A stretch of DNA of 64,000 bases from a virus. The position numbers and the translations under genes are program-made. The DNA lies in IMG/VR virus record IMGVR_UViG_3300038427_000078; one strand, 5' to 3'. Positions 11,538-47,722 of the stretch are shown here, piece after piece (position 1 is the first letter of the stretch; each line of letters starts with the position of its first letter). The notes below the pieces were generated by a model. The model did not search any database and was not told the origin of the DNA. It was given only the letters and a program-made list of their open reading frames with translations.

Positions 11538-12533
11538 ATGGAGTATCAGAAGTATCTAAGGTCTGCTCACTGGCATGATCTTCAACGAGTGTTTTGGGAG
11601 AGGCATGAGCATCGCTGCGTAGTGTGTGGCGCAGAAGAGTCGCTGCATATCCATCACCGAACCTACGAGCATCTTGGGCATGAGGAGTGGGAGGATCTTA
11701 TCCCGTTGTGCGAAGATTGTCACACGCTAGTTCATCGGCTAGTGGACAATGGGCAAGCCTCTTTGTCTGACGCTCATCTCAAGTTGAATCCTTCGCTAGA
11801 GTGTCCTTCTCCGGAAGGACGAATCACTATTCCTCAGCGCCTTGGGCATGGACGCAAACATTTTGATGTTGGATCTGTGCCGTTGTACGTTGAGGGACAG
11901 GAGTACACCCCGGAGCAGTTGGACATGATGGCGACCTATTGGCTATGGACTCGAAGGGAGAACGGCCAGGGTGACATTCTGTTGAGTGCGAGTCAATGGA
12001 AGGGGCGCTACGAGCGTGAGATATACACAGCGGATGGGAAACCACCGGACCCCGCTAATACGACCGACCGCTTTGGCAACTACATCGATGGCATGTACTG
12101 GCGTACATGTCCTGGGGGTCGAAAGTGGGTGACCGAGGGAGTTCGTCGTACGATGGGATGTGGATTCTACTCGCATGCTATCGCAGAGGGCAAGAAGATT
12201 GTTCCTCCGAGAGAAGTCGAGGAGCAGGTCCAATGCCCCGGTCCTGGCTGTGATCGACCGGCTAAGACCGGAGGTCTTTGTCCCGCCCACTACCAGCAGC
12301 AGAGGCAGGGCCGACCTTTGGCCCCCATCCGTGTGCATGACGGACTCGGGTACGACCGCTCTCGAAAAAGGAAGAGCCTCAAGGAAAAAGAGAGGCGGCG
12401 CGTCGAGAAAGAGGAGCGCCAAGAACGTCCGAAGAAACCCAGGAAGAACGGGCGTCTAGTGGTCGTCGGGCGGGATGAGGATGGTCAGCCGATCACAATC
12501 CGAGAAGATTCGTCAGAGCATGCTACAATTTAG
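11538..12533 (+). CDS. HNH-domain multidomain protein
   Basis: CVVC...LHIHHRTY...LCEDCH; later GLCPAHY Zn motif. Confidence 0.75.
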   Translation: MEYQKYLRSAHWHDLQRVFWERHEHRCVVCGAEESLHIHHRTYEHLGHEEWEDLIPLCEDCHTLVHRLVDNGQASLSDAHLKLNPSLECPSPEGRITIPQRLGHGRKHFDVGSVPLYVEGQEYTPEQLDMMATYWLWTRRENGQGDILLSASQWKGRYEREIYTADGKPPDPANTTDRFGNYIDGMYWRTCPGGRKWVTEGVRRTMGCGFYSHAIAEGKKIVPPREVEEQVQCPGPGCDRPAKTGGLCPAHYQQQRQGRPLAPIRVHDGLGYDRSRKRKSLKEKERRRVEKEERQERPKKPRKNGRLVVVGRDEDGQPITIREDSSEHATI

Positions 12534-12737
12534 TCATGACCCGTGCTAGAATAGATGAGATGGATCACTACACCGAACCCATTCTAGTCAAAGGAAACGC
12601 CAAGCAGGGCGGTTCCATCTGACCCTAGACGCATCCGCATAGGACGAGTCTAGGGGCTTCCGAGAGGAAGCCCTTGATGTTTCCGGAGTAGTGTGGTAGG
12701 ATCCAGAAGTACAGCAGCAAGACATAGAACAAAGCCT

Positions 12738-12812
12738 CTCCTCGTAGCTCAGTCAGGACAGAGCAGCCGCCTTCTAAGCGGTCGGTCGAGGGTTCGAATC
12801 CTTTCGGGGGGA
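12738..12812 (+). tRNA. tRNA-Arg(TCT)
   Basis: Cloverleaf, loop CTTCTAA. Confidence 0.9.
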
Positions 12813-13043
12813 CTTGACAGACGCAGATTCGTCTGCTACTCTGTCGAAACGGTAAGGTCCACCGTACATATCCAACGGACCGGCTGGTCAGCCGTAACCA
12901 TACGGCGAGTAGCTTGACGGACAGCGCCCAGGTGGGTGCGAGTCCAGCGCGAATAGCGGTTGAGCGATGTTGACACTTCTGCCTCTCAGAGTAAGCAGCG
13001 GGTACAGAGTTCAGGGTTCGCGCCCGGAGCCAGCCAAATCTTC

Positions 13044-13124
13044 GCCAAGGTATGCAAGTGGACAAAGCACGCTGTCTGTAAAACAGTTCTCTCGGGTTCG
13101 TAGGTTCGACTCCTACCCTTGGCA
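13044..13124 (+). tRNA. tRNA-Tyr(GTA)
   Basis: Cloverleaf, loop CTGTAAA. Confidence 0.9.
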
Positions 13125-13191
13125 TAAAATCGAGTCCCCTCGCGGAAAATTTTTGCGGGGAATGCTCAGGCGAGATTAGCATAATCTTCAC

Positions 13192-13224
13192 GCGCTGGTG
13201 ATGGAACGGTAGACTTGCTTTGTT
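13192..13224 (+). pseudogene. 5' half of split tRNA-Leu(TAG)
   Basis: GCGCTGG-TG-ATGGAACGGTAGAC; acceptor pairs with the 3' half at 13830-13879. Confidence 0.7.
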
Positions 13225-13262
13225 TTCCATTCGCATCTGTGCTATAAGTAATAGAAGCATAC

Positions 13263-13347
13263 GTCCGCATGCTGGAACTCGGTAGACGGGCACGGTTGAG
13301 AGCCGTGTGGCCGAAAGGTCGTGTGGGTTCGACTCCCACTGTGGACA
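13263..13347 (+). tRNA. tRNA-Leu(GAG)
   Basis: Cloverleaf with long variable arm. Confidence 0.9.
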
Positions 13348-13349
13348 TC

Positions 13350-13832
13350 ATGGCATTTATCCATCGCTACACATTGGAGATGTTGGAAGAGGCAGCGGAG
13401 CACAGCACTTCGGTCGCTGGTGTCTGTCGTTATCTCAACATCAACAACCCTGGCGGTAGTTCGCAGACGAACATCCGCAATCGTCTTCGTGACTTCGGCA
13501 TCGATACCTCACACTTCTTGGGTAAAGCTGCTCGCAAAGGAACACAAGCGAGCAATCGAAAGACGGCGGCAGAGATACTTGTACGCCTTCCTTCTGGTGC
13601 CTACCGACCAGAAGCAAAGAAACTTCGACGGGCCTTGATCGAACAGGGACGAGAGTATGTCTGTGAGGGTTGCGGCAACAAAGCGTGGTGGAAAGAAGGC
13701 CCATTGACACTTGAAGTAGATCACATCGACGGCGATTGGCACAACAACGAAGAGGACAACCTTCGTTTCTTGTGTCCTAATTGTCATAGCGTTTACACGT
13801 TGCCCGGTGTACCATGTGGTACGGCGGACTAG
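13350..13832 (+). CDS. HNH homing endonuclease
   Basis: CEGC...LEVDHIDGDWHNNEEDNLRFLCPNCH. Confidence 0.9.
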   Translation: MAFIHRYTLEMLEEAAEHSTSVAGVCRYLNINNPGGSSQTNIRNRLRDFGIDTSHFLGKAARKGTQASNRKTAAEILVRLPSGAYRPEAKKLRRALIEQGREYVCEGCGNKAWWKEGPLTLEVDHIDGDWHNNEEDNLRFLCPNCHSVYTLPGVPCGTAD

Positions 13833-13879
13833 GACGTGGTGCCCTTCGGGGCGTGTGGGTTCGAATCCCACTCAGCGCA
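13830..13879 (+). pseudogene. 3' half of split tRNA-Leu(TAG)
   Basis: TAG-GA-CGTGG, variable arm, T arm, TCAGCGC-A. Confidence 0.75.
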
Positions 13880-14152
13880 TAGGGCCGGTGGTCAGGCGAC
13901 GGGGTAAGCTCCTGTCGAATGCAGCCGAGTAGGTCGGGGATCCAGGCGCGTCTGGTGAAAGACCCGTATCCCTCTTGAGGGGTGCCCATCTCAAGCACTT
14001 GGTTGCGGAGCGGTCAAGTGGGTAGAGGGCGGAAGCCAGCCTTGAAAGGTTGAGCCGAAAGCTCTAGCTCCAATGTTTCAACTCCCGTGTAGTGGTGGAA
14101 GTCCACGTCGCGCAAGCGATTGTTACTGATGTGTGTCATGCACGGGAGCCAT

Positions 14153-14228
14153 GCCGCTGTGAAGGGAATTTGGCATACCTCTCACGCTTAGAACGTGAGG
14201 CTTGTGGGTTCGAGTCCCACTGGCGGCA
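14153..14228 (+). tRNA. tRNA-Leu(TAG), short variable loop
   Basis: Loop CTTAGAA; no long variable arm. Confidence 0.85.
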
Positions 14229-14246
14229 CTCAGTAGTGAAGTACCT

Positions 14247-14318
14247 GCCTCCGTATGGTTAGTGGTAGACCCTCCGACTTTTAATCGGGAAGCTGGGGTT
14301 CGATTCCCCACGGGGGTA
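14247..14318 (+). tRNA. tRNA-Lys(TTT)
   Basis: Loop CTTTTAA. Confidence 0.85.
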
Positions 14319-14469
14319 CTTTTGTGGTGATCGGCTGGGCTTGATCGGCCCGCTGTCCGATGGAAGGTGGTCGTGTGTCCACTCTTCGACCCGCGTCAAG
14401 TAGGGCCACAACGAAGGGCAAGATACCTCCGTACCGCAGCGCGCCGGGACGATAGGTAACACACAACAT

Positions 14470-14542
14470 GGGCCTGTAGCTCAAATGGGAGAGCGCCTGC
14501 CTTGCAAGCAGGAGGTTGAGGGTTCGATTCCCTCTAGGTCCA
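14470..14542 (+). tRNA. tRNA-Ala(TGC)
   Basis: Loop CTTGCAA, G3-U70. Confidence 0.92.
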
Positions 14543-14711
14543 CTGACTGTGGTGATCAGTCAAGCGGTAGCGGCCCCGGTAAAGGGTGCAGCCCGCACGA
14601 ACTCACCACCGCCTCTGCGTTCACGGGCAGAGCAAATGGAAGTGTCGTGAGCTTCCCGTACAATTCTCTCTCCCCGATTTCAGTGCGTGGGATGGAGGGC
14701 GGTCGAATCAA

Positions 14712-14785
14712 CAGGGAGTAGCGCAGTCTGGTAGCGCACTTGGTTTGGAACCAAGGGGTCGCGGGTTCGAATCCCGCCTTCCTGA
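14712..14785 (+). tRNA. tRNA-Pro(TGG)
   Basis: Loop TTTGGAA. Confidence 0.92.
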
Positions 14786-14826
14786 TAGCAGAGGGACGGC
14801 TGCTTCGTAAACCGTCCCGCACTTAC

Positions 14827-14922
14827 GCGCCTGTAGCTCAGTGGTCAACGGTTCTCTTCGGGGAGCCAAAGAGTTGCCGCCTTTCAAGCGGTAGGTCCGG
14901 GGTTCGATTCCCCGTAGGCGCA
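14827..14922 (+). tRNA. tRNA-Glu(TTC) with extra hairpin in D-loop
   Basis: Loop CTTTCAA; GGTTCTC-TTCG-GGGAGCC inside the D-loop. Confidence 0.8.
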
Positions 14923-14979
14923 TAACTCGTACCGCACCCCGGATTAGGGAGTACGAAGGCGGTGCAACGCCGCCACCAG

Positions 14980-15053
14980 CAGGGTATAGCGCAGTCTGGT
15001 AGCGCGCTCCCCTCGGACGGGAGAGGTCGTAGGTTCGAATCCTATTACCCTGA
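14980..15053 (+). tRNA. tRNA-Pro(CGG)
   Basis: Loop CTCGGAC. Confidence 0.9.
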
Positions 15054-15135
15054 TAGCGGCAGGCCATGGCCTGTCTCGAAGATCCTCGGTTGAACCGTGA
15101 AGCCATAGTTACCACGGGCCGGTACGGATCGAGTT

Positions 15136-15208
15136 GCCGGTCTAGCTCTAATGGTAGAGCGCTTCCGTGGTAAGGAAGAGGTTCCGAGTTCGAATCTCGG
15201 GATCGGCT
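15136..15208 (+). tRNA. tRNA-Thr(GGT)
   Basis: Loop GTGGTAA. Confidence 0.9.
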
Positions 15209-15470
15209 TAGCGGGGTAGACTCCATGCGCAGGGGTCGATGTCGAGGGAGTCATGACCCAAGGCACGCGGGTACCGACAGGCAAAGCGCCTGCTCGGTCC
15301 GTGCCGCACACTCATACCGTGCGCCGGGAAACCGCTAGACTGGCGGGTGTTACCGGATAAGGAGAGGCTAGTCACCGATCCGAAAAGGGATTGCTCGCAC
15401 GGTTTTCTAGATTGATCGGTCGGCCTCCGGTAGAGGAGTAGCGGACGGGTCGCCCCTCCACGGAGGGCTT

Positions 15471-15542
15471 GCCAGCAAAGCGGAAGTGGTGCCGCACCCG
15501 TTTCGTAAGCGGGGGAATCGGGTTCAATTCCCGATGCTGGCT
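15471..15542 (+). tRNA. tRNA-Thr(CGT)
   Basis: Loop TTCGTAA; A at position 8. Confidence 0.85.
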
Positions 15543-15693
15543 TTGAGGCCGTGACCTCCGGGTAAGAAGCGCGGGGAGCGTCAGTCTTAGGTTGTCCAGG
15601 GTCTAAATTTGCGCCTGGCTGAGCAGCGGAGACTACATAACCGGCTCGCCTCACTTTCGTACTTTTCTTTCGGGTACGACAAGGTAATGTGTA

Positions 15694-16101
15694 ATGGTAT
15701 GTGCTACCTGTAAAGAAGAGAAGGACTTGGACGAGTTCCATGCTGGTGCTCGCGTGTGTAAAGGCTGCAAGAAGGATGCCGATGCTCGCTCGTTTCAGAA
15801 GCATCGGGAGGCTCGTCTAGAAAAGCGCCGACAGGATCGCCTCGCAGCACGCGAATGGTTTGAGTCCTTGAAGGCAGGAAAGAAGTGTGCCGACTGTGAT
15901 CTGGATCATCCTCCGTGGAGGATGGATTGGGATCACCTTCCAGGCACAGAAAAGCTCTTTGAGATAGCCGATGTCAGCCACATGGCAACGGGAGAGAAGG
16001 GCAAGCGGAAGATACTGGACGAGATTGCCAAGTGCGAGCTTGTCTGTGCCAACTGTCATCGAGACAGAACGCACGACCGCCGACGGGGAGTGGCCCTGTA
16101 A
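15694..16101 (+). CDS. HNH endonuclease
   Basis: CADC...MDWDH...EIAKCELVCANCHR. Confidence 0.85.
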   Translation: MVCATCKEEKDLDEFHAGARVCKGCKKDADARSFQKHREARLEKRRQDRLAAREWFESLKAGKKCADCDLDHPPWRMDWDHLPGTEKLFEIADVSHMATGEKGKRKILDEIAKCELVCANCHRDRTHDRRRGVAL

Positions 16102-16126
16102 CTCGGTTCGACTCCGAGTGTTGGCT
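16102..16126 (+). pseudogene. Orphan tRNA-Thr 3' end
   Basis: CTCGG-TTCGACT-CCGAG-TGTTGGC-T. Confidence 0.7.
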
Positions 16127-16171
16127 TCCATGGCAGACGAGGAGGCAAGCCCTCTCTTGACTCTGCCGCCA

Positions 16172-16244
16172 GGGGGATTGGTGTAAACGGCAATCATGAT
16201 CGGCTCCAACCCGATTGATCAGGGTTCGAATCCTTGATCCCCCG
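16172..16244 (+). tRNA. tRNA-Trp(CCA)
   Basis: Loop CTCCAAC. Confidence 0.85.
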
Positions 16245-16342
16245 CTGTAGCAGACGTGCTACCCGGCCAGGGGATCTACCTGGTGCAGGCCAATGCTGCC
16301 AGCCCACGCCAGTCGAAACGCTGTCCTGTGGCTGGCCTACCT

Positions 16343-16379
16343 GGTGTCTTAGCTCAGATGGTTAGAGCGCTGCCCTGTC
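16343..16379 (+). pseudogene. 5' half of a tRNA-Asp ending at the GTC anticodon
   Basis: GGTGTCT-TAGCTCAGATGGTTAGAGC-G-CTGCC-CT-GTC, then unrelated sequence. Confidence 0.8.
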
Positions 16380-16429
16380 TAGTAGACCACTGGCCTTCAA
16401 GGGCGGTGGTATCGGCTAGGTAATAGCTG

Positions 16430-16846
16430 ATGGCAACTACCAAGGACAAGGGCGACCTCGCTGAGCTACGCATCGCATCAGACTTGATGCGGCAAGGATA
16501 CAAGGTAGCTATTCCCTTCGGTGACAATTGGGACTTCGACCTGATCCTGTACCGCGATGGGTTCGAGAGGGTCCAGGTCAAGTACGCTCAGTCAGACGGT
16601 GAGAAGGTCGAGGTCAAGGCGGTAAGCTACTCGACCAACAAAGGTCTGACCATCTCAGCGAAACAGTACACCGCTGCTGAGATTGACTGGCTTGCGGTGT
16701 ACGATGTGACCACCGACGAATGCTTCTACGTGCCAGCTAGCGAGCTTGGCGACGGGATGAGGATGGTGACGCTCAGGTATAAGCCTGCGCGTAACAACCA
16801 GACCAAGGGCATCCGGTGGACGAAGGACTATGGGTCCGTAGCGTAG
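16430..16846 (+). CDS. PD-(D/E)XK homing endonuclease, I-Ssp6803I-like
   Basis: TKDKGDLAE...PFGDNWDFDLI...RVQVK...YTAAEIDWLAVY. Confidence 0.85.
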   Translation: MATTKDKGDLAELRIASDLMRQGYKVAIPFGDNWDFDLILYRDGFERVQVKYAQSDGEKVEVKAVSYSTNKGLTISAKQYTAAEIDWLAVYDVTTDECFYVPASELGDGMRMVTLRYKPARNNQTKGIRWTKDYGSVA

Positions 16847-16905
16847 TGGTCTAACGCGCCTCCCTGTCAAGGAGGAGAACGGGGGTTCGAATCCCCTCGG
16901 TCCCG
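16832..16905 (+). tRNA. tRNA-Asp(GTC)
   Basis: Complete cloverleaf overlapping the nuclease 3' end. Confidence 0.9.
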
Positions 16906-17118
16906 CTCAACAACGAAGCGGAGAATCATGAAGCTCAGTAAGCTCAGTAAGCTAAGTCGTACATCCGAATTGCTCCCGTATCTTGAATCCGTTGAGCATT
17001 ACGCCAACGCTGCCGTATACCACGGCACCTTCGAGGGCGAACAGTTCACGTTGACCTTTACCTTCGGCCCTTGACTCGTCGCTTGACTTCTAGTCGTGGA
17101 CCGTGTAGACTACGGTCC

Positions 17119-17586
17119 ATGAACCTACTAAAGACACTTCCTGTCGTGCTGCTCGTAGCCCTTGCTGGATGCGGAGCAGTTACCAAAGCACCTGCCAAAG
17201 CACCTGCCCCGCACCCTAGTCTCCCCAAGGTGGTCAAGGTCACGGCGCAACCGACCACGACGACACCGGAACCCAGGCCCAGGCCCAAGCCTAGACCTGC
17301 GGTGGTAGTTCCTGTGCCTACTCCTACGCCTACATACCCGACATGCGATGGCGGACCCGTTGAATGCGGGAAGGCATCGGCAGCACCGACACGGGAAGAA
17401 AGTCTGCAACAGCACTACCGCGAAACCGGAGGCTGCGGTGGGGAAGGAGAGGCTGAATGTCCCGCCCACGGAGAAGGCAGCGGAGAAAATAGCGTCAACA
17501 GCACGGGTGAATCGCGTGCCTGTGCAGAAGAACGTAGTGAATACACAAGTGGCGAGAGGTCTAGTCTCCGCGTTGGCTGTCGATAA
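17119..17586 (+). CDS. Lipoprotein, Pro-rich with Cys-containing C-terminus
   Basis: MNLLKTLPVVLLVALAGC lipobox; leaderless promoter upstream. Confidence 0.75.
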   Translation: MNLLKTLPVVLLVALAGCGAVTKAPAKAPAPHPSLPKVVKVTAQPTTTTPEPRPRPKPRPAVVVPVPTPTPTYPTCDGGPVECGKASAAPTREESLQQHYRETGGCGGEGEAECPAHGEGSGENSVNSTGESRACAEERSEYTSGERSSLRVGCR

Positions 17587-17626
17587 GTCAAGGCGGAGGT
17601 CGCGGGTTCGAGTCCCGTCGTTGTCG
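17587..17626 (+). pseudogene. 3' half of a tRNA-Asp starting at GTC
   Basis: GTC-AA-GGCGG-AGGTC-GCGGG-TTCGAGT-CCCGT... Confidence 0.75.
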
Positions 17627-17639
17627 CTCGCAGTACAAC

Positions 17640-17711
17640 GCGCTGGTAGCTCATTGGCAGAGCAATCGGTTTACACCCGATGTGTATGGGGTTCGATTCC
17701 CTGGTGGCGCA
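17640..17711 (+). tRNA. tRNA-Val(TAC), weak acceptor and T stems
   Basis: Loop TTTACAC. Confidence 0.7.
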
Positions 17712-17758
17712 TAGATGTCAAGTAGCTCTGTAGGCGCAGGGGGGTGCGACATCTTTGA

Positions 17759-17831
17759 GGGCGATTAGCTCAGTTGGGAGAGCGCCGTCGCGACATGGCG
17801 GAAGTCACTGGTTCGAGTCCAGTATTGCCCA
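17759..17831 (+). tRNA. tRNA-Val(GAC)
   Basis: Loop GCGACAT (C33). Confidence 0.85.
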
Positions 17832-18020
17832 CTCTCCTGTCACCTAATTGGTGGCAGGGAATGCAAACCCACGACCAGCGTAAGAAAGGATGGTGATCCA
17901 GAAATCTACCTTGTAGACAGATGGTCGCCGTCCACAGTTGGTCGGCACTAAGTCGTTGGGGGAGGGTGAGGGCCGCTGGCTCTTAGCCCTCCCTCCGAGG
18001 TTCTTCGGAGCCTCACCCAT

Positions 18021-18417
18021 GGGCCTTTCCCGGTAATCGATTGGGTAGGTTCGGCAGTATGTCATGCAGCGGTCGTCACACCTACCTGACAAAAGCCATA
18101 ACTGGCAACGCAACAGACACGCTCGCAATCCCCGCATCTCTCTTCGAGGTTCGGGCTAGCGACGTACTCGCTGTAGCCTAAGAAGCTACAAGCCGGGACC
18201 AGCCGAGTATCCTGGGAACAGAAACCTCGGAGGGCAGTGAGCGCCATGCCCTTGACGTGCAGAGTACCGTTGTAGTTACACCGCAAGGTGTTGGTAGCAC
18301 CCCGCGCGTTCCCGGACGTATAACCGGGTGGTGGAGGCGGGCCATGCCTGTCCCAAAGCTGCTAGAAGTGACGCCTGTACGAGACTCAAGACGGCAGTTC
18401 GACTCTGCCAAGGTCCA
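18021..18417 (+). ncRNA. ssrA: tmRNA; tag (A)GNATDTLAIPASLFEVRASDVLAVA at 18104-18181
   Basis: Acceptor GGGCCTT/AAGGTCC-A with G3-U70; T arm GGCAG-TTCGACT-CTGCC; ATAACT-GGC resume context. Confidence 0.9.
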
Positions 18418-18451
18418 CTAAAACAAGGTCCATCCGTGCTAGAATAGATGG

Positions 18452-18889
18452 ATGGGCAGAGAGCAAAGACGAGCAAAGCAATTGGGTATGCCGCATGGCA
18501 CAGCCATGCACCGCTTGCGTAAACGAGTGATGTTTTCACTAGCTCAGGAGTTGCACTTGGATCAGTGCATCGTGTGTAAGAGGATGATCGAAGATGCTGA
18601 CGACCTTAGCATCGAGCACATCCAGCCGTGGGAGGGCCGAGACACGTCCCTGTTTTGGGACATCACTAACATCGCTTTCTCTCATCGCTGGTGCAACCAA
18701 CCTCATACGCGACCGGGCAAGCCTCCGGTTCATGACCTCAAGCCCGACATGTGGTGGTGCTCCCACTGCGAACAAGAACTTCCGCTTGATCGATTCGGCC
18801 TCAAGACAGTGACAAGTGGAGCTAAACGACCACGAAACTACTGCAACAAATGCCGTACCGAACGTAAAGCAATGGGCCTCTCGGCCTAG
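18452..18889 (+). CDS. HNH endonuclease
   Basis: CIVC...SIEHIQPW...NIAFSHRWCN plus C-terminal Zn motif. Confidence 0.8.
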   Translation: MGREQRRAKQLGMPHGTAMHRLRKRVMFSLAQELHLDQCIVCKRMIEDADDLSIEHIQPWEGRDTSLFWDITNIAFSHRWCNQPHTRPGKPPVHDLKPDMWWCSHCEQELPLDRFGLKTVTSGAKRPRNYCNKCRTERKAMGLSA

Positions 18890-19056
18890 TCCACTTGACA
18901 AGCCGGAGAAGACGTGCTAAGCTCCCGGCATGGAACAAGACAAAAACGGAAACCTGATCTGCAACGTCTGTGGACAGGATTGGGCAAGCCAACACACCAT
19001 CGGGGCAACTGCCTCCAACCTCCCAGGAAGCCAAGTCAACCAAAGGAAGGCAAGTG

Positions 19057-19359
19057 ATGGGCTACTACATCGAGACACCCCTCCCGCTCGCGAAGGCACT
19101 TCAACTCGAAGAGCTTCACGGTGCGGAGCCGTACTCGGGTACGTTCGAGGACGTACCGGAGGGCAAGGTCGTAGTCGCAGTGGTACAGAACGGTCTGTTC
19201 GACGCCGCTGGCATCTGCTACGACGAGAACGAGTTCAAGGCATTCACCGCTGACCCAAGCGACACCAGGCCGAAAGACCTGTTGACGCTGGACAAGGACA
19301 CCGCCCTACGGCTGTGCCCGCACGCAGCGGAGGTACTTGGAGAGGACGTGGCTACCTGA
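19057..19359 (+). CDS. Hypothetical protein
   Basis: SD plus ORF. Confidence 0.6.
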   Translation: MGYYIETPLPLAKALQLEELHGAEPYSGTFEDVPEGKVVVAVVQNGLFDAAGICYDENEFKAFTADPSDTRPKDLLTLDKDTALRLCPHAAEVLGEDVAT

Positions 19360-19565
19360 TGCCCGTCCTTTTCTTCATCATCGCAGGCATCATCCTGATC
19401 GCCAACTCGGGCTGGTTCCACGGAGCAGACATCGTTGGCATCGTCCTGCTCGTCTTTGGCGGGCTTGGACTTGTCCTCTGGCTCGTCGCTGCGAAATTCG
19501 CACGGAGCATCATCAAAGAGGTCAAAGGACCAGGGACACCCCGGCATCCCCGGAGGTTCCGCTAA
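19359..19565 (+). CDS. Small two-TM membrane protein
   Basis: Two hydrophobic segments. Confidence 0.6.
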   Translation: MPVLFFIIAGIILIANSGWFHGADIVGIVLLVFGGLGLVLWLVAAKFARSIIKEVKGPGTPRHPRRFR

Positions 19566-19572
19566 GTTGTTC

Positions 19573-19645
19573 GCCCTTGTAGCTCAGAGGATAGAGCATC
19601 GGTTTCCTAAACCGTGTGTCGCGGGTTCGATTCCCTCCGGTGCCA
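19573..19645 (+). pseudogene. tRNA-Arg(CCT) with non-pairing 3' acceptor strand
   Basis: Loop TTCCTAA intact; GCCCTTG pairs poorly with CGGTGCC. Confidence 0.65.
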
Positions 19646-19661
19646 TGGTATACTGTTGGGT

Positions 19662-20003
19662 ATGAGTGATCAAGACCTAACAGAGCAGCAAGTAGTGGCT
19701 GCGGAGGCCGGTGTCGGAGACAGCATACAGGCCATCGCGGACCGCGCAGTCAAGGCCGTCGAGGTACTGGACTTGAGCGAGGGCGATGTTCTCGTAGTCA
19801 AGCTCGGCATCGATGACATGGGTGACGGACTCCCACCGTGGATTCCGGGACCAGCGGAGCTAGAGCAGGTGTCAGATGCCTTGACCGCGACAGTGCCAGA
19901 GGGCGTACGGGTGCTAGTTCACCACCTGGGAATCAACTTCCAGATCGTACGCGGCCTCGACACCAGTAACCCGGTCGTAGTCGAATCGCTGCCAACAGAG
20001 TAA
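19662..20003 (+). CDS. Stand-alone paralog of an internal portal segment
   Basis: KLGIDDMGDGLPPWIPGPAELEQV vs portal KLGIMDMGDGLPPWLPGPEELESV. Confidence 0.8.
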   Translation: MSDQDLTEQQVVAAEAGVGDSIQAIADRAVKAVEVLDLSEGDVLVVKLGIDDMGDGLPPWIPGPAELEQVSDALTATVPEGVRVLVHHLGINFQIVRGLDTSNPVVVESLPTE

Positions 20004-20006
20004 CAC

Positions 20007-20081
20007 GCGGGAATAGCTCAGCCAGGTTAGAGCACTTCTCTGATAAGGAAGGGGTCAGAGGTTCAAATCCTCTTTTCCGCA
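20007..20081 (+). tRNA. tRNA-Ile(GAT)
   Basis: Loop CTGATAA. Confidence 0.88.
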
Positions 20082-20166
20082 TCGCAGGAAAATCGGTCCT
20101 GAAAAATTAGGGTCGGCGCTCAGAAAAATTTTGCGCCAACTTCTCAGGCGAGATTAGCCTAATTAC

Positions 20167-20241
20167 GCCCAAGTGACGGGAATTGGCATACCTGGCAAGC
20201 TCAAACCTTGTCGTTTGTGGGTTCGACTCCCACTTTGGGCA
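20167..20241 (+). tRNA. tRNA-Leu(CAA), short variable loop
   Basis: Loop CTCAAAC; no long variable arm. Confidence 0.85.
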
Positions 20242-20273
20242 CTTTTTGTCGAACCTTCTGACACGTAATATAC

Positions 20274-20606
20274 GTGGCATACAAGGATCCTCAGAAGCAG
20301 AAAGAAGCACAGCATCGGTCATATCTGCGTAACAAAGAGATAATCCTCAGGCGCAGTTCTGATCGCATCAAAGAGCTTCGACGCAAAGTGCGAGAGTACA
20401 AGGAGGAGCGTGGTTGTAGCGCGTGCGGGTACAACAAATACGGTGGGGCTATCGATGCTCATCACCCAAACGGCAAGGATAACCAAGAACAGTGCATTGC
20501 CCGTTTGTGCAAACGGGCCTTTCCGTGGGAGACAATCCTTGCGGAGCTTGAGAAGTGCATTCTTCTCTGTTCCAACTGTCATCGCGAGCACCATCGCGGT
20601 GAGTAG
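20274..20606 (+). CDS. HNH endonuclease
   Basis: CSAC...IDAHH...ELEKCILLCSNCHR. Confidence 0.85.
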   Translation: MAYKDPQKQKEAQHRSYLRNKEIILRRSSDRIKELRRKVREYKEERGCSACGYNKYGGAIDAHHPNGKDNQEQCIARLCKRAFPWETILAELEKCILLCSNCHREHHRGE

Positions 20607-20784
20607 CATAACGCGCTATACTGGAAATATGGGACCAGACAAATGTGGCGCAGAAGTCGGACTTTTGGCAAGATGCCAAAGACCGGCGAATCACGACGGA
20701 GAGCACTCAGGGCCGATTTTCGTCCCTCAGTGGATTACCTATTTGGGCGAGGGTGACGAGATTCCTCGCAGTCAGTACCAATCG

Positions 20785-20856
20785 TGCGGAGTGGAGCAAC
20801 GGTAGCTCGCAAGGCCCATAACCTTGAGGTAGGAAGTTCGACTCTTCCCTCCGCTA
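20785..20856 (+). tRNA. tRNA-Met(CAT), initiator-like
   Basis: 1-72 mismatch; loop CCCATAA. Confidence 0.85.
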
Positions 20857-20868
20857 TAGCAGTACAAT

Positions 20869-20940
20869 TCCGGGTTCGTCTAATCGGCAGGATGTCTGGT
20901 TCTGAGCCAGATGGTCAGGGTTCGAATCCTTGACCCGGAG
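20869..20940 (+). tRNA. tRNA-Gln(CTG)
   Basis: Loop TTCTGAG. Confidence 0.9.
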
Positions 20941-21002
20941 CTTTGGCAGTAGAAGGCGAACAGCGCTTAGAGCGGGTTCGTGGGATCCCGCGCTGTCAAC
21001 AT

Positions 21003-21073
21003 TGGGGGTTCGTTCAACGGCAGGACAGCGGGCCTTGAACCCGCGAATCGGGGTTCGAATCCCTGACCCCCAG
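21003..21073 (+). tRNA. tRNA-Gln(TTG)
   Basis: Loop CCTTGAA. Confidence 0.88.
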
Positions 21074-21155
21074 CTAGCAAGGCAAGGAGCCGGTAGGCGT
21101 GTGCTACCGGACCAGAACGAGGCGTCACTGCACGCCTACCTTGCCGCAATCTTTC

Positions 21156-21239
21156 GCCTCTCTGGTTGGAATGGTAGACACAGCGGGCCTAAACCCCGCC
21201 GATCTTCGGATCGTCCGAGTTCGACTCTCGGGAGAGGCA
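21156..21239 (+). tRNA. tRNA-Leu(TAA)
   Basis: Loop CCTAAAC; long variable arm. Confidence 0.88.
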
Positions 21240-21241
21240 TC

Positions 21242-21316
21242 GCGTCGGAAGCTCAAGTGCGAGCGCCGCCCATTTGGGGGCGGAGGTCGAGGGCGATTAG
21301 CTCCCCTCTCGGCGCA
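21242..21316 (+). ncRNA. tRNA-like RNA with atypical loops
   Basis: All four stems pair; anticodon loop CATTTGG; 10-nt T-loop. Confidence 0.65.
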
Positions 21317-21320
21317 ACAT

Positions 21321-21394
21321 GGTGGTCGTCATCTAATGGACTAGGATTCGAGGTTGTGAACCTCGCCATGCGGGTTCGATTCCCGTCGATCACC
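21321..21394 (+). tRNA. tRNA-His(GTG)
   Basis: G-1:C73; loop TTGTGAA. Confidence 0.9.
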
Positions 21395-21406
21395 CTGGCA
21401 GCACAA

Positions 21407-21481
21407 GCGCCACTAGCTCAGTCTGGTTAGAGCAACTGTCTTATCAACAGCGTGTCCGGGGTTCAAATCCTCGGTGGCGCA
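21407..21481 (+). tRNA. tRNA-Ile(TAT)
   Basis: Loop CTTATCA. Confidence 0.8.
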
Positions 21482-21487
21482 CTTCAT

Positions 21488-21561
21488 GGCCCGTGGGTCT
21501 TATGGCAAGGATTCCGCGTTCTCAGCGCGTGAGATGATGGGTTCGAATCCCATACGGGCTA
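21488..21561 (+). tRNA. tRNA-Glu(CTC)
   Basis: Loop TTCTCAG. Confidence 0.85.
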
Positions 21562-21636
21562 CTCTGTAGGTACCATTCGAATGGCTCTGCCTGCGGAACG
21601 CTTGACTTCATCGCACCCGTGCGATATGATGTCGCT

Positions 21637-22290
21637 ATGTCGAGAGCAAGAGACTGGACCCACCCAATCACCGGCGAGCTACACTGGTTCGACGTACACG
21701 GCATGGCTGGGGTCCGGGAACTCGAAGTTCTCGCAGACGCCGAAGACATCGACTTGGACGACCTGTTCGACGCGAACCTCTCTTCTAAGGAGGTTCTGTT
21801 CCGGCTCAACAAGCTCAGTGAGCTAATCCCGGAGGCGGGCCTCAACAAGCTCAAGAAACGTCAGACACAGGGCGAGCCTGAGACTTGCCGCATCTGCCCG
21901 CTACTCGGTCGGGAGTGCGAAGGTCGAATGACCAAACATCACTTCGTGCCGCGTTGGATCATGTTGGAACTGGCAGACTACGAGGTCTATGCACCGCGTA
22001 GGCTCTGCACAGTCCCGGCGTGCGCCGGGAGCCACCGTTGGCTCCACATGCGGACCGAGGAGGGATCGAAATCCATCGCTCCTTACCTCGACAAGAATGA
22101 GAAGGCACTAGCGCACCATCTCATCGGGACACTCCGTCAGGAGCGCCCCAGGATCTACGCCCTCCTCGCGGGCGGGGACAAGAACAGCTACGAGTGGCAA
22201 CTTGTTCAGGATTGGCGGCGAGGACTGTTTGATGTCAGGGGGGAAGGGAAAGATCCCTTCCCTCGCTGGCAGCTACGAAACTCTCTGTAG
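21637..22290 (+). CDS. Hypothetical protein with HNH-like Cys/His cluster
   Basis: CRIC...TKHHFVP...VPACAGSHRWLH. Confidence 0.6.
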   Translation: MSRARDWTHPITGELHWFDVHGMAGVRELEVLADAEDIDLDDLFDANLSSKEVLFRLNKLSELIPEAGLNKLKKRQTQGEPETCRICPLLGRECEGRMTKHHFVPRWIMLELADYEVYAPRRLCTVPACAGSHRWLHMRTEEGSKSIAPYLDKNEKALAHHLIGTLRQERPRIYALLAGGDKNSYEWQLVQDWRRGLFDVRGEGKDPFPRWQLRNSL

Positions 22291-22353
22291 CTCAGTGGAT
22301 AGAGCGTCCGGTTGCGATCCGGGAGGTCGGCGGTTCGAGTCCGTCCAGGGAGG
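22281..22353 (+). tRNA. tRNA-Arg(GCG)
   Basis: Loop TTGCGAT. Confidence 0.85.
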
Positions 22354-22381
22354 TACGTTAGAACCCTGCTAAGGTGTAGAT

Positions 22382-22561
22382 ATGCCTTACGCAGATAGAG
22401 AGAAACAGGCGGCGTATCAACGCGATTGGTACCGACGCCACAAAGAGCAACATATCAACCGTATTCGTAACGAACGTCGTAAGAGGCGTGAAGTGGTCAA
22501 CGAATACAAGCTCTCAAGAGGGTGTAACCGATCGCGGGTTCGATTCCCGCATAGTGCTTAG
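22382..22561 (+). pseudogene. Truncated HNH gene fused to a tRNA 3' fragment
   Basis: MPYADREKQAAYQRDWY...YKLSRGC resembles the N-termini of 20274 and 23901; runs into GCGGG-TTCGATT-CCCGC. Confidence 0.7.
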
Positions 22562-22568
22562 ATCAAAC

Positions 22569-23155
22569 TTCGTATCAGGCGGTTGCTGCGCTTGAAAGAC
22601 AGCGTAGAGGAAGTTCGGGGCATGCTGGCAGGGGAAACCTTGTCATCGGCTCAACTACACCGAGTGACACCGGCCCAAAGGAGGTACGCCCTCGTTGGTG
22701 TTCCGGCGCATGCAACTCCAAGTAGAGAACCCTACGGCGAAAGCTATGGGCATATCGGGTTGGAGGCTTAGATGGATGATCGCCACCAGTTACGACTCAG
22801 AGGAGAGACATGAACTACTGTGAAGCGATGGCCTACGTCGCGGGGCTGTTGGAGGGCGAGGGATGCTTCGATTTCGTAGCTCCCGGCCATCCAAGGATCC
22901 GCATGGAGACAACAGATGAAGATGTGGCATACTGGCTTCAACACTTGGTTGAAGGTGGGACAATCACTAATCGTCAGGGCAAACGCAGTAATCACAGCGA
23001 TTCGTTTGTGTGGCAAACGAGCAGGGCTGATGTGGTCAAGAAGGTCTTGACGGCAATCTATCCTTGGACAAGTGCTCGCAGGCGAGTAAAGATTGATGAA
23101 CTCATGTCTGCTCTCTGAGCCGTAGTTGGTACAGAACCCCGGCTATCGATACGAA
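22569..23155 (+). ncRNA. rnpB: RNase P RNA (minimal) interrupted in P19 by an ORF
   Basis: P1 TTCGTATC/GATACGAA; P2 GGCGGTT/GATCGCC; GAGGAAGTTCGGGGC (22607) pairs with ACAGAACCCCGGCT (23131) as P4 with bulged U; AGATGGAT. Confidence 0.88.
22810..23118 (+). CDS. Single-motif LAGLIDADG homing endonuclease
   Basis: AYVAGLLEGEGCF; SD AGGAG. Confidence 0.85.
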   Translation: MNYCEAMAYVAGLLEGEGCFDFVAPGHPRIRMETTDEDVAYWLQHLVEGGTITNRQGKRSNHSDSFVWQTSRADVVKKVLTAIYPWTSARRRVKIDELMSAL

Positions 23156-23196
23156 TATGCCCCTCGGCTCTGTTCAGAACGGCTTGGGGGCACCAA

Positions 23197-23270
23197 GCCT
23201 GTGATGCAGAAATGGTGCTGCGCTCGCCTTGTAAGCGAGAATAGACTCGGTTCGATTCCGAGCATAGGCT
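23197..23270 (+). tRNA. tRNA-Thr(TGT)
   Basis: Loop CTTGTAA. Confidence 0.85.
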
Positions 23271-23434
23271 CTGACTGCGCTCTTGCAAGCACCGGGAACC
23301 GGCGTGCGGCAGAGCGGCGCGCTGGTCACCCGTGGCTAGTCCTCATTTGCTCAACGCACCCCGGATTAGGGATTGGGCAGGCTAGTCTAGTGTGAGTACC
23401 CACTGATCGCGATGAGCGTGAGGGGAAATCCAAT

Positions 23435-23505
23435 GCGGATGTGGCGTAATGGTAACGTATTTGCCTTCCAAGCAAAGGTTGCGGGTTCGACTCCCGTCTT
23501 CCGCT
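23435..23505 (+). tRNA. tRNA-Gly(TCC)
   Basis: Loop CTTCCAA; U73. Confidence 0.9.
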
Positions 23506-23571
23506 TCAACCCACGACACAAAGGAGGTACCCCATGCGGTTAGGCACTGTCTAATCGAAAGGAGGTACTAA

Positions 23572-23742
23572 GTGAACGGCAACCTCGCAGCCAAGGCTGC
23601 GAAGCTCATGCAGAAGAACGGGAACCGCGACAAAGGAGGCGGATCCCACAAGTACGGACGCAACCGCAACAAGTGCGCCCGCTACCGCGCCCGCGTGGGG
23701 AAGCCCCGTGGTCCTGGTGTCGATGGAAACAAGAAACACTAG
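23572..23742 (+). CDS. Small basic Gly/Lys/Arg-rich protein (56 aa)
   Basis: SD AAAGGAGGT; MNGNLAAKAAKLMQKNGNRDKGGGSHKYGRNRNKCARYRARVGKPRG... Confidence 0.65.
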   Translation: MNGNLAAKAAKLMQKNGNRDKGGGSHKYGRNRNKCARYRARVGKPRGPGVDGNKKH

Positions 23743-23779
23743 AGGGTGGCCGACCGGCCCACTGGAACGGTCGGATTAG

Positions 23780-23850
23780 TGCTGTGTAGCTCAACGGTAG
23801 AGCAACTGGCTCATAACCAGAAGACGGCGGTTCGACCCCGCTCGCAGCGA
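23780..23850 (+). tRNA. tRNA-Met(CAT)
   Basis: Loop CTCATAA. Confidence 0.85.
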
Positions 23851-23900
23851 CTCATAACTCACAGGCTCCTTTCGAGCCATTTCCGGGCGCATAATGCTTG

Positions 23901-24245
23901 ATGGCATACAAGAACAAGGTCGATCAAGCAGCCTCTTCTCGTCGTCATTACCTTCGTAACCAGAAGGCGATGAAGGAGAGGGCTGAACTCAAGAACCGCG
24001 AACGTCATGCAGAATACGCGGAGAAGATCAAGGTTGCGAAGGCTAGACCTTGCGCCGATTGCAACATCGAATACCCTCACTACGTCATGGACTTCGATCA
24101 TGTGCGTGGCAAGAAGGTCGGGAACGTATCGACCATGGCTCATGCCTTGCGACCTTGGAAGCTGATCGAACAAGAGATTGCGAAGTGCGATGTCGTCTGT
24201 TCTAATTGTCATCGAGAGCGTACGTATGTTCGACTCTCCGCATAG
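23901..24245 (+). CDS. HNH endonuclease
   Basis: CADC...MDFDHVRG...EIAKCDVVCSNCHR. Confidence 0.88.
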   Translation: MAYKNKVDQAASSRRHYLRNQKAMKERAELKNRERHAEYAEKIKVAKARPCADCNIEYPHYVMDFDHVRGKKVGNVSTMAHALRPWKLIEQEIAKCDVVCSNCHRERTYVRLSA

Positions 24246-24328
24246 CGATTTCATCATCCGGGCGCGAAACCTGCTATCATCGGTAGAGTAATGGTTGGAG
24301 ACAGACACATGGACAACGGTGGCTATCA

Positions 24329-24466
24329 ATGCTCGACTTCATCTTCCGATACCTGTGTCGGCGCTTCGGCCATCGCTGGATTGCCGAGGAAACCTACGCT
24401 GGCGAGTGGTGGGACATCTGCGCCCGCTGCCACGCTGTGCGCAAACACCAACCGGGGAGAAATTGA
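24329..24466 (+). CDS. Small Cys/His protein
   Basis: LCRRFGHRW...ICARC. Confidence 0.55.
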   Translation: MLDFIFRYLCRRFGHRWIAEETYAGEWWDICARCHAVRKHQPGRN

Positions 24467-24472
24467 AGGTCC

Positions 24473-47196: not shown

Positions 47197-47715
47197 ATGG
47201 ATAGCTTATGTGAGTGTGGTTGTGGGAAAATGGCTCCTATCGCAACCAAGACAAACGTTTCAAGGGGTCATGTCAAAGGACAACCTGTGCGATTCATTCG
47301 CGGACATTACAAAGGCGGTAGTCCAGGCCGTCGTGTGCCAATTTGGGATATTAGCGAAGATGGGCGTATGGCGACGGGGGAATGTAAGCGGCATGGCATT
47401 GGAAAGTTCGTTCTTCGAGGCGATGGGACAATGCGTTATCGTTGCCAATCTTGCGCTAGCATGCACGCTCGCAATTGGAATAAACGACGTAAGGAAACGC
47501 TTGTCAAGGAGCATGGGGGCAAGTGTGTTATTTGCGGATACGATAGATACCTGGGCGCTTTTCATTTCCACCATCGGGATCGTACGACAAAGGAGTTTCA
47601 TGTGAATCAACATGGACCTGGAATTGAGGCAGCGCGGGTAGAGGCAAAGAAGTGTATTCTGCTCTGTGGCAACTGTCATTCCGAGGTTGAGGGTGGGTTC
47701 AGTGAGCTTCCGTAA
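47197..47715 (+). CDS. HNH endonuclease
   Basis: CECGCG...CVICGY...FHHRD...KCILLCGNCH. Confidence 0.88.
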   Translation: MDSLCECGCGKMAPIATKTNVSRGHVKGQPVRFIRGHYKGGSPGRRVPIWDISEDGRMATGECKRHGIGKFVLRGDGTMRYRCQSCASMHARNWNKRRKETLVKEHGGKCVICGYDRYLGAFHFHHRDRTTKEFHVNQHGPGIEAARVEAKKCILLCGNCHSEVEGGFSELP

Positions 47716-47722
47716 GGACTCT

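Follow-up and report, generated by a model that had tools for sequence, protein, structure and literature searches.

A candidate anticodon-arm homing cassette in a phage tRNA array: an intron-free I-Ssp6803I-like nuclease and a complete tRNA-Asp between the halves of a split tRNA-Asp gene

To our knowledge, homing endonucleases are thought to persist in essential genes only by way of self-splicing introns or inteins, or by residing beside their target. The integrative elements that target tRNA genes insert within the gene and rebuild the 3' end of the tRNA from attP, with its function kept. I-Ssp6803I, the enzyme encoded in the group I intron of Synechocystis tRNA-fMet, cleaves to either side of the anticodon triplet and leaves 3-nt 3' overhangs, a cleavage pattern that is given here as background and is not used as evidence. 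It is reported to read a 23-bp pseudo-palindrome, that is, the anticodon arm, and its family is described as mainly cyanobacterial (PMC3384342). The T4 endonuclease SegB cleaves the naive phage within a tRNA gene and so promotes, with co-conversion, the inheritance of the tRNA region to which it belongs (PMC2330249). In fungal mitochondria, at atp6 and cob, a mobile endonuclease ORF lies beside a duplicate, partial or whole, of the gene that it has invaded, and the part of the original that was displaced persists as a remnant (PMC6279837).

The locus described here lies in a 64,000-nt stretch of viral DNA (IMG/VR record IMGVR_UViG_3300038427_000078; hereafter the window), where two halves of a tRNA-Asp gene are separated by an insert of ∼1.2 kb that carries a nuclease gene, a complete tRNA-Asp, a 48-codon ORF and a lipoprotein-like ORF. 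The reading that we favour, and consider probable, is that of an anticodon-arm-specific homing endonuclease that is free-standing and travels with a tRNA allele immune to it. The anatomy of the locus, its synteny, the lack of an intron, the nuclease family and the linkage across that family to intact tRNA genes with fast-changing anticodon stems are shown here; we infer the specificity of cleavage, how the cassette homes and that the new allele is immune. The nuclease shares with I-Ssp6803I its PDDEXK_5 family, a tRNA host gene and the anticodon position. Unlike I-Ssp6803I, however, it is free-standing rather than intron-encoded, its cassette includes a full tRNA gene and two further ORFs, its candidate target is tRNA-Asp rather than tRNA-fMet, and the two sequences are only ∼25% identical. 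The clade to which it belongs is found in Thermoleophilia and their likely phages, whereas the I-Ssp6803I family was described as mainly cyanobacterial.

As for SegB and other free-standing phage homing endonucleases, the gene sits amid the tRNA genes of a phage cluster and is missing in otherwise syntenic relatives. SegB differs in being a GIY-YIG enzyme that reads the conserved T-psi-C arm with relaxed specificity, and it neither splits a tRNA nor leaves halves behind, nor does it bring a dedicated immune copy of its target. The fungal mitochondrial ORFs are alike in that the endonuclease adjoins a duplicate of the invaded gene and a remnant is kept, but their targets are protein-coding, their enzymes are of the LAGLIDADG or GIY-YIG type and only the C-terminal part is duplicated; the window cassette supplies a whole RNA gene, and the break is at the anticodon. 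Integrative elements also carry a replacement sequence by which the tRNA stays functional. They depend on an integrase and a reversible site-specific reaction, and carry an identical copy of the 3' part only, whereas the window cassette has no integrase and its replacement tRNA is strongly divergent.

The 5' half of the split gene (16343..16379, plus strand; tRNA positions 1-36) runs from an acceptor strand through a perfect D arm and the strand CTGCC of the anticodon stem to CT-GTC, with the anticodon as its 3' end. The 3' half (17587..17626, plus strand; positions 34-73) starts with GTC-AA and continues through the stem strand GGCGG, a perfect T arm and an acceptor strand to the discriminator G. 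All of the elements on which an earlier note, written from the sequence alone, had based its description of a tRNA-Asp broken at the anticodon are present at the stated coordinates, and ARAGORN calls the halves, when rejoined, as tRNA-Asp(gtc). A 28-mer of the 5' half is an exact match to genuine tRNA-Asp genes of two unrelated phages (L026, L027), and in the related phages G004 and G005 the half is matched at 97% identity, contiguous with the match to the 3' half. The T arm of the 3' half is identical to that of G005, with which it also has the trailer GCTyGCAGTAC in common. The anticodon triplet is duplicated, with copies at 16377..16379 and 17587-17589 on the plus strand; such a 3-bp repeat would arise by accident about once in 64 cases and is only suggestive of a staggered cut or of a 3-bp crossover core.

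In four syntenic relatives (G001, G003, G004 and G005) the halves adjoin as one intact tRNA-Asp between tRNA-Trp and tRNA-Val, in arrays of the order Thr-Thr-Trp-Asp-(Lys)-Val-Val(-tmRNA), the intact gene being equal to the 5' half plus the 3' half. A fifth relative (L126) has an intact tRNA-Asp between Trp and Val(tac). The comparison with relatives that the earlier note had proposed thus finds a single intact tRNA-Asp, a candidate target, in the matching slot of five related contigs, between Trp and Val or Lys. Because the halves adjoin as an intact gene in four syntenic relatives, the match is more than chance, and the comparison shows that the split slot ancestrally held a single tRNA-Asp. 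The PF11645 profile of the nuclease family has no match in the five related phage records G001-G005, a weak negative, since control genomes were likewise without a match.

Does the split gene record a single insertion? The earlier note had allowed for two events or decay. The most parsimonious account is one insertion. The anticodon-stem strands of the halves (CTGCC/GGCGG) pair, with one G-U. In the acceptor strands only five of seven positions pair, three of them G-U, leaving two mismatches, and the stem strands look to be of different types, CTGCC being as in G005 and GGCGG, with its loop, as in G001. Since the acceptor strands pair poorly and the stem strands appear to belong to different allele types, the history is more complex than one clean event; these features suggest that the halves may be of mosaic origin or may have decayed later, so that this part of the caveat stands. 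Neither half, taken together with its own acceptor sequence, has an exact match in IMG/VR.

The left end of the cassette, which includes the nuclease leader (16380..16429, plus strand), begins TAG TAG, and its last ∼28 nt resemble the nuclease leader in the related phage contig L126; no promoter or terminator was called in this segment. The intact nuclease gene that follows (16430..16846, plus strand) encodes a PD-(D/E)XK protein of 138 aa. Its residues 3-135 match positions 2-136 of the 138 in PF11645 (PDDEXK_5; E 2e-33, 115.8 bits against a cut-off of 26.1), and it matches I-Ssp6803I (2OST) directly at E 5.6e-4 with the D...QVK motif aligned, in agreement with the family assignment first made from the sequence alone. 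We take the conserved catalytic core of PDDEXK_5 to be an acidic residue in the DxDL strand and then (E/Q)xK. Asp37 and Gln49-Val50-Lys51 (D37 and Q49-V50-K51), which do not vary among 26 homologues and which the window protein has too, align with YDL and VQVK of 2OST, and all 35 of the 35 columns that are invariant in these homologues are kept. In a quick tree the window nuclease groups with that of L126 (SH-aLRT 88).

The complete tRNA-Asp(GTC) lies at 16832..16906 on the plus strand, its first 15 nt being also the 3' end of the nuclease ORF, stop codon included. ARAGORN calls it and the Rfam tRNA model scores it at 68.4 bits, as expected of the complete, divergent copy that had been noticed inside the insert; it is the sole intact tRNA-Asp that ARAGORN finds in the array of the window. 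Alignment with the alleles of the relatives places its divergence in the D arm, the anticodon stem (CCTCC/GGAGG) and the T stem, and both strands of the anticodon stem differ from those alleles. An origin in Thermoleophilia hosts was considered and rejected, the best matches in five genomes being 72-79% identical at most. In the phage database the matches are to further tRNA-Asp genes of phages and extend over only part of the length, at 77-88%; no source emerged from either comparison.

How would such a cassette move, and how would the phage survive its arrival? Most likely, the nuclease would read, in double-stranded DNA, the anticodon arm of the common tRNA-Asp gene and, by analogy with I-Ssp6803I acting on tRNA-fMet genes, would cut at the anticodon, with the cassette entering the gene at the break so made. 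Because the cassette cannot be spliced from RNA, it carries its own complete tRNA-Asp, through which the phage would keep its supply of this tRNA; the different anticodon stem of this copy should confer immunity to the nuclease. As far as the cut site, the dead halves correspond to the intact gene that naive relatives have, and could therefore act as homology arms in a co-infection, during which the whole cassette would be copied into the cut tRNA-Asp gene by homing with co-conversion, taking the 48-codon ORF and the lipoprotein gene along as cargo.

Homologues of the nuclease elsewhere, in soil bacteria and in other phages, have a similar context. The 3' end of the gene abuts or overlaps an intact tRNA-Ala(TGC) in 79 of 80 loci from Thermoleophilia genomes, on the opposite strand in 58 and on the same strand in 21. 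Other homologues from phages and metagenomes abut tRNA-Val(GAC) (the related phage L126), tRNA-Thr (L128 and L130-L133) or tRNA-Met (L127). This linkage of the nuclease to an intact tRNA is a new finding and is a rule across the family. Two loci retain pieces of an older tRNA: in L126 a fragment from the 5' part of the old tRNA-Val precedes the nuclease gene, and L120 has the 3' half of an old tRNA-Ala that starts in the anticodon loop (nhmmer E 7e-6). Searches of the bacterial loci by BLAST and nhmmer gave clear remnant halves only in L120 and a weak case in L075, and no remnants were seen alongside the copies linked to tRNA-Thr. That most bacterial loci are without remnant halves counts against the favoured reading; the nuclease there may lie beside rather than inside a tRNA, or the events may be old.

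The linked tRNA-Ala(TGC) genes vary specifically in the anticodon stem, where the mean entropy is 1.30 bits compared with 0.21 outside it (n=72). In the neighbouring tRNA-Ala(CGC), which does not vary, the values are 0.00 in the stem and 0.03 elsewhere (n=16). Of 26 unlinked tRNA-Ala(TGC) genes, 16 have the stem CCTGC/GCAGG and ten have variant stems; among 82 linked genes, which avoid this common stem, it is present in 3 (Fisher p 7e-10); like the other bacterial stem statistics, this value is uncorrected for shared ancestry. In the phages, anticodon stems vary also among relatives that lack the nuclease, so that the stem difference of the window tRNA-Asp taken alone proves little. The earlier proposal that this copy restores the lost function by being resistant to cleavage gains indirect support from the single ancestral tRNA-Asp, from the change in both stem strands and from the linked tRNA-Ala, with its stem variation and its avoidance of the stem usual in unlinked genes; resistance itself is predicted from these patterns.

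The foremost rival, although an unlikely one, makes the nuclease a passenger. The tRNA-Asp would have been broken by illegitimate or tRNA-to-tRNA recombination, in an array prone to recombination, or by an HNH enzyme of the array, and the nuclease and the second tRNA-Asp would have come in on the inserted fragment. Other endonuclease genes and tRNA remnants are indeed present in the array (HNH ORFs at 13351-13832, 15694-16101 and 18452-18889), the halves look mosaic, and no second copy or donor of the cassette was found in INPHARED, IMG/VR or the JGI metagenomes. What such an account leaves to coincidence is that the break falls exactly at the anticodon, the site of action of the one characterised member of the family, and that its position is matched in L120. 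The near-universal linkage of nuclease and tRNA in the family and the concentration of variation in the anticodon stem of the linked tRNAs also argue against it.

Slightly less probable again is that the family is not selfish at all, but a domesticated factor kept beside tRNA genes for some cellular or phage purpose, for example defence or control of tRNA genes, the phage case being a rearrangement of such a pair. Many Thermoleophilia have a conserved gene order here, with glutamate dehydrogenase downstream, and most copies of the nuclease are intact. Yet the distribution of the family is patchy: 39 of the 201 Thermoleophilia genomes have it, and some copies are frameshifted or fragmentary; the genes lie in both orientations, tandem and convergent double copies exist, and the identity of the linked tRNA differs between genomes. 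Presence of the endonuclease in some genomes and its absence from others, within otherwise conserved synteny, is a trait of the Seg/Mob type. In L094, moreover, the nuclease is almost the same as that of L088, but its tRNA has given way to a second module of nuclease and tRNA; replacement of a whole module, like the mosaic appearance of the window halves, may reflect co-conversion. We regard the patchiness, the fragmented copies and the module replacement in L094 as signs of a selfish life cycle.

There is very little to recommend a third possibility, in which the insert is removed from RNA, whether as a group I intron that is cryptic or degenerate or by some other splicing or processing route, or in which the halves form a split tRNA, so that the old tRNA-Asp is functional. 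I-Ssp6803I itself resides in a tRNA group I intron (PMC1995217), and the anticodon-stem strands of the two halves can pair. A permissive Rfam scan of 12000-24500, however, gave no group I intron match at E<=1, and three ORFs and a tRNA occupy all but ∼115 nt of the insert, in keeping with the earlier view that there is no intron. Inspection of the GTC repeat by eye shows that no boundary gives both a 5' exon ending in U and an intron ending in G, and together with the scan these splice-site rules led us to reject group I splicing. The two mismatches and three G-U pairs of the acceptor strands and the complete tRNA-Asp inside the insert also weigh against a functional old gene. Least credible of all is an assembly chimera, in which the halves and the cassette would be contiguous in no real genome, for although tRNA arrays are rich in repeats and several contigs end in this region (one, L136, starts at 16415), an 8-kb contig from a different sample is 100% identical to window positions 12119-20196 across both junctions, and the cassette is overlapped in part by three shorter contigs, two of them spanning the right junction, giving the same layout in four independent assemblies.

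We conclude that the favoured reading, in which an anticodon-arm endonuclease spreads with an immune tRNA allele, would add a third solution for an RNA gene: the target is destroyed and a replacement is supplied that the enzyme should not cut. The odds are somewhat better than even that the family as a whole comprises previously undescribed selfish elements, namely intron-free PD-(D/E)XK homing endonucleases that are directed at anticodon arms and accompanied by an immune tRNA copy or half-copy, and that move between phages and Thermoleophilia chromosomes, switch tRNA targets (Ala, Asp, Val, Thr, Met) and engage in an arms race that rewrites the anticodon stems of tRNA genes that are frozen in other respects. 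If the mechanism holds, these elements would explain the abundance of endonuclease genes and tRNA fragments in the tRNA arrays of large actinophages, and would make escape from a nuclease a selective force on tRNA anticodon stems across a bacterial class. They would also provide natural PD-(D/E)XK enzymes with different, predictable targets of 20-odd bp, each with a sensitive and a resistant site, and such pairs would be useful for the study of how specificity evolves. Bonocora and Shub, as cited in PMC6279837, proposed that free-standing endonucleases precede mobile introns; with a family of the intron type present here without an intron, the idea in the form quoted there could be tested from the other direction.

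Finally, the two cargo ORFs both lie on the plus strand, downstream of the replacement tRNA-Asp. The 48-codon ORF (16928..17074), which was absent from the earlier account of the locus, is preceded by GGAG and has no match in a Pfam search. A scan of the cassette for promoters and terminators gave a single weak promoter-like site (17083-17111), and sites in shuffled controls are at least as good. The lipoprotein-like ORF (17119..17586) is an orphan, without a Pfam match and matched only by itself among 5.8 billion proteins; that it might be a displaced homologue of the membrane ORFs found between Trp and Asp in G004 and G005 was considered and rejected, as there is no similarity. It has a signal peptide with the lipobox LAGC, a Pro-rich linker and a Cys-rich tail. 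Its TAA stop codon abuts the 3' half of the split tRNA-Asp, and an alternative TTG start at 17071 overlaps the stop codon of the 48-codon ORF.

The tRNA-Asp gene of this phage is present as two separated halves, with a GTC triplet at both junctions with the cassette, exactly the layout that the earlier note had described. The 5′ half (16343-16379) carries the first 36 tRNA positions, comprising the acceptor strand, a fully paired D arm, the stem strand CTGCC and CT-GTC, and the 3′ half (17587-17626) carries the last 40 positions from GTC on, including a perfect T arm. Between them lie the nuclease ORF of 138 codons (16430-16846), a complete, divergent tRNA-Asp(GTC) (16832-16906) that overlaps its final 15 nt, a 48-codon ORF, and an ORF of 155 codons whose product has a lipoprotein signal (lipobox LAGC) and whose TAA stop touches the GTC at 17587. 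The tRNA-Asp inside the insert is the only intact one of the phage. When the halves are rejoined ARAGORN calls them tRNA-Asp(gtc), with three G-U pairs and two mismatches in the acceptor stem, and a 28-nt stretch of the 5′ half exactly matches real tRNA-Asp genes of two unrelated viral contigs. An 8-kb contig from another sample reproduces 12119-20196 of the window without any difference, and parts of the cassette are also present in three shorter contigs, so the arrangement is a natural one.

The ancestral state of this locus was a single tRNA-Asp gene. In a comparison with five related phage records (G001-G005), the matches to the two halves directly adjoin in G004 and G005. In G001, G003, G004 and G005 the order Thr-Thr-Trp-Asp-(Lys)-Val-Val is conserved and ARAGORN places an intact tRNA-Asp in the same slot; in L126, another related phage contig, it places one between Trp and Val(tac). 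This is the synteny comparison that the earlier note had proposed. On alignment, the halves are near-identical to the tRNA-Asp genes of the relatives in the D arm, anticodon arm, T arm and 3′ trailer.

The likeness of the nuclease to I-Ssp6803I, claimed on inspection, is borne out by a match to Pfam PDDEXK_5 across the whole profile (E 2e-33) and by a direct match to I-Ssp6803I itself (PDB 2OST, E 5.6e-4). The two enzymes belong to the same family, but the intron context that defines I-Ssp6803I is lacking here. A permissive Rfam scan of 12000-24500 found only tRNAs and chance matches and no group I intron, in agreement with the earlier claim. Only ~115 nt of the insert lie outside the ORFs and the tRNA, too short for a ribozyme core, and no choice of boundary within the GTC repeat satisfies the group I splice-site rule (U then G). 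Splicing out of the insert is thus very unlikely.

Linkage of the nuclease to intact tRNAs extends beyond this phage, a comparative pattern absent from the earlier note. Homologues number in the hundreds, at 53-63% identity, and 80 loci were taken from species-representative genomes, nearly all of them Thermoleophilia (Solirubrobacterales and Thermoleophilaceae), with one MAG labelled Acidobacteriota. An intact tRNA-Ala(TGC) starts ~40 nt or less from the point where the conserved part of the nuclease ends, or overlaps its ORF, in 79 of the 80, on the opposite strand in 58 and the same strand in 21. The C-terminal tails of many annotated homologues are mere read-through into the tRNA, and the window ORF likewise terminates within tRNA-Asp. 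Other members of the family adjoin other tRNAs: tRNA-Thr(GGT or CGT) in metagenome contigs L128 and L130-L133, tRNA-Met in L127, and tRNA-Val(GAC) in L126.

The nuclease of L126 (IMGVR_UViG_3300046382_000018, region 1437-1992) is 51% identical to that of the window and occupies a tRNA-Val(GAC) slot, not a tRNA-Asp slot. Just upstream is a piece of the old tRNA-Val that runs from the acceptor strand through the D arm into the beginning of the anticodon stem; downstream, the intact tRNA-Val combines the T arm usual in the family with a new D arm and a new anticodon stem. The ~25 nt ahead of the L126 start codon resemble the window leader, and include a TATAAT box in L126. In L120, from Solirubrobacterales, the intact tRNA-Ala and the 3′ half of an old one flank the nuclease on opposite sides; the old half begins within the anticodon loop (nhmmer E 7e-6, profile positions 31-72). 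The remnants in L120 and L126 thus show that the break at the anticodon arm recurs. In a quick tree the window nuclease groups with that of L126 (SH-aLRT 88), beside the bacterial clade.

The linked tRNA-Ala genes vary mainly in the anticodon stem, the presumed target. Mean entropy over its ten positions is 1.30 bits in 72 standard linked tRNA-Ala(TGC) genes, compared with 0.21 elsewhere in the molecule; the changes are compensatory, and 31 distinct stems occur among 79 linked genes. At 16 of the same loci the stem of the neighbouring tRNA-Ala(CGC) is invariant (0.00 bits), whereas that of the linked TGC gene has 1.05. The stem CCTGC/GCAGG is found in 16 of 26 unlinked tRNA-Ala(TGC) genes of the class sample, compared with 3 of 82 linked ones (Fisher p 7e-10, uncorrected for shared ancestry). 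This pattern fits recognition of the anticodon arm by the enzyme, the widespread allele being sensitive and the linked alleles escaping. The ten unlinked genes with variant stems could be survivors of past invasions. Seven linked tRNA-Ala(TGC) genes directly downstream of the nuclease (L066, L069, L077, L086, L092, L109 and L117) share an atypical body, with a different acceptor stem that retains G3:U70, an unusual D arm (GTGGTGCTAACGGGAACAC) and a G-rich T stem, and may represent a lineage of replacement tRNAs travelling with the nuclease.

How might such a locus have arisen? It is established how the locus is built, that it goes back to one gene, that the insert has no intron, which family the nuclease belongs to, that this family is linked to intact tRNAs and that their stems vary; beyond this, we infer that the nuclease would cut the common tRNA-Asp gene in its anticodon arm, and that the cassette would be captured at the break or copied from a donor already having the halves. 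The replacement tRNA-Asp, with the stem CCTCC/GGAGG where relatives have CTGCC/GGCAG or CCGCC/GGCGG, would be immune, and the flanking halves would act as homology arms in further homing. The duplicated GTC would be consistent with a staggered cut of 3 nt around the anticodon, such as I-Ssp6803I reportedly makes; alternatively, a 3-bp crossover core would give an identical repeat. The stem strand of the 5′ half is G005-like, and the stem strand and loop of the 3′ half are G001-like. These mixed stem types, together with the acceptor mismatches, suggest that each half derives from a different allele, the outcome expected of uneven co-conversion; alternatively, the halves may have decayed. As far as sequence evidence reaches, the interpretation of the earlier note, that function was restored by a cleavage-resistant copy rather than by splicing, is supported.

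Functionally, the cassette is nearest to free-standing phage endonucleases such as T4 SegB, which lies in a tRNA cluster and cuts a tRNA gene in naive phages (PMC2330249). By contrast, SegB is a GIY-YIG enzyme, reads the T arm and has no replacement gene. In fungal mitochondrial atp6 and cob, an endonuclease ORF brings a duplicate of the displaced gene part (PMC6279837). A full-text search of open-access papers found no description of tRNA-linked, free-standing I-Ssp6803I/PDDEXK_5 members or of a replacement tRNA; stand-alone PDDEXK_5 genes have been counted in jumbo gut phages, with no mention of tRNAs (PMC12880540). Intronless homing is already known, and the comparative pattern reaches well past this phage.

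The distribution of the family, with patchy, fragmented, tandem and replaced copies, shows signs of a selfish life cycle. Among 201 genomes sampled from the class, 39 carry it; several copies are split or partial, and in G006 two tandem nuclease copies lie beside the tRNA. The nuclease and flanks of L094 are nearly identical to those of L088, but in L094 an inverted module, consisting of another tRNA-Ala and a second intact nuclease (68% identical), has taken the place of the tRNA and the 52 nt beyond it; two intact PDDEXK_5 genes thus converge on one tRNA-Ala(TGC) at L094:1465-2576 (Solirubrobacterales MAG JANWHD010000018.1).

A second split tRNA of like design, checked by eye, occupies 13193-13879 of the window. 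It begins with a 5′ remnant of an old tRNA-Leu (acceptor strand GCGCTGG); then come an intact tRNA-Leu(GAG) (13263-13347), an HNH ORF ending at 13832 with TAG, and the old 3′ part, the acceptor strand of which (TCAGCGC) pairs with the 5′ fragment. With at least one such analogous cassette in the same phage, the pairing of an endonuclease with a replacement tRNA would seem to be a general strategy of tRNA arrays of this kind. Between tRNA-Thr(CGT) and tRNA-Trp, an ORF at 15694-16101 has HNH-like Cys/His motifs and no significant Pfam match, and is followed by a lone T arm and acceptor strand (about 16103-16140); the homologous ORF in this slot in G004 and G005 extends into tRNA-Trp.

The phage itself is large and tailed, with a high GC content. 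Its portal protein shares 40% identity with its counterparts in cluster C mycobacteriophages, and its nearer relatives by portal (57-73% identity) are uncultured IMG/VR contigs of 144-170 kb. The tRNA array, at 12.7-23.9 kb, contains about 29 tRNA genes and a tmRNA gene, with endonuclease ORFs interspersed. A 96-nt tRNA at 14827-14922 (Rfam, 57.5 bits), unnamed by ARAGORN, has an extra hairpin with a UUCG loop in its D loop. A further tRNA, at 19573-19645 (44 bits, anticodon CCT, Arg), is called by Rfam but not by ARAGORN; it has two acceptor-stem mismatches and may be a decaying or chimeric tRNA-Arg, and in relatives a tRNA-Arg(CCT) directly follows the tmRNA gene. A 720-aa ORF at 47666-49828 has the head domain of a poly(A) polymerase/CCA-adding enzyme, the RNA-binding domain that goes with it, and an HD domain; it looks like a phage CCA-adding enzyme accompanying the tRNA array.
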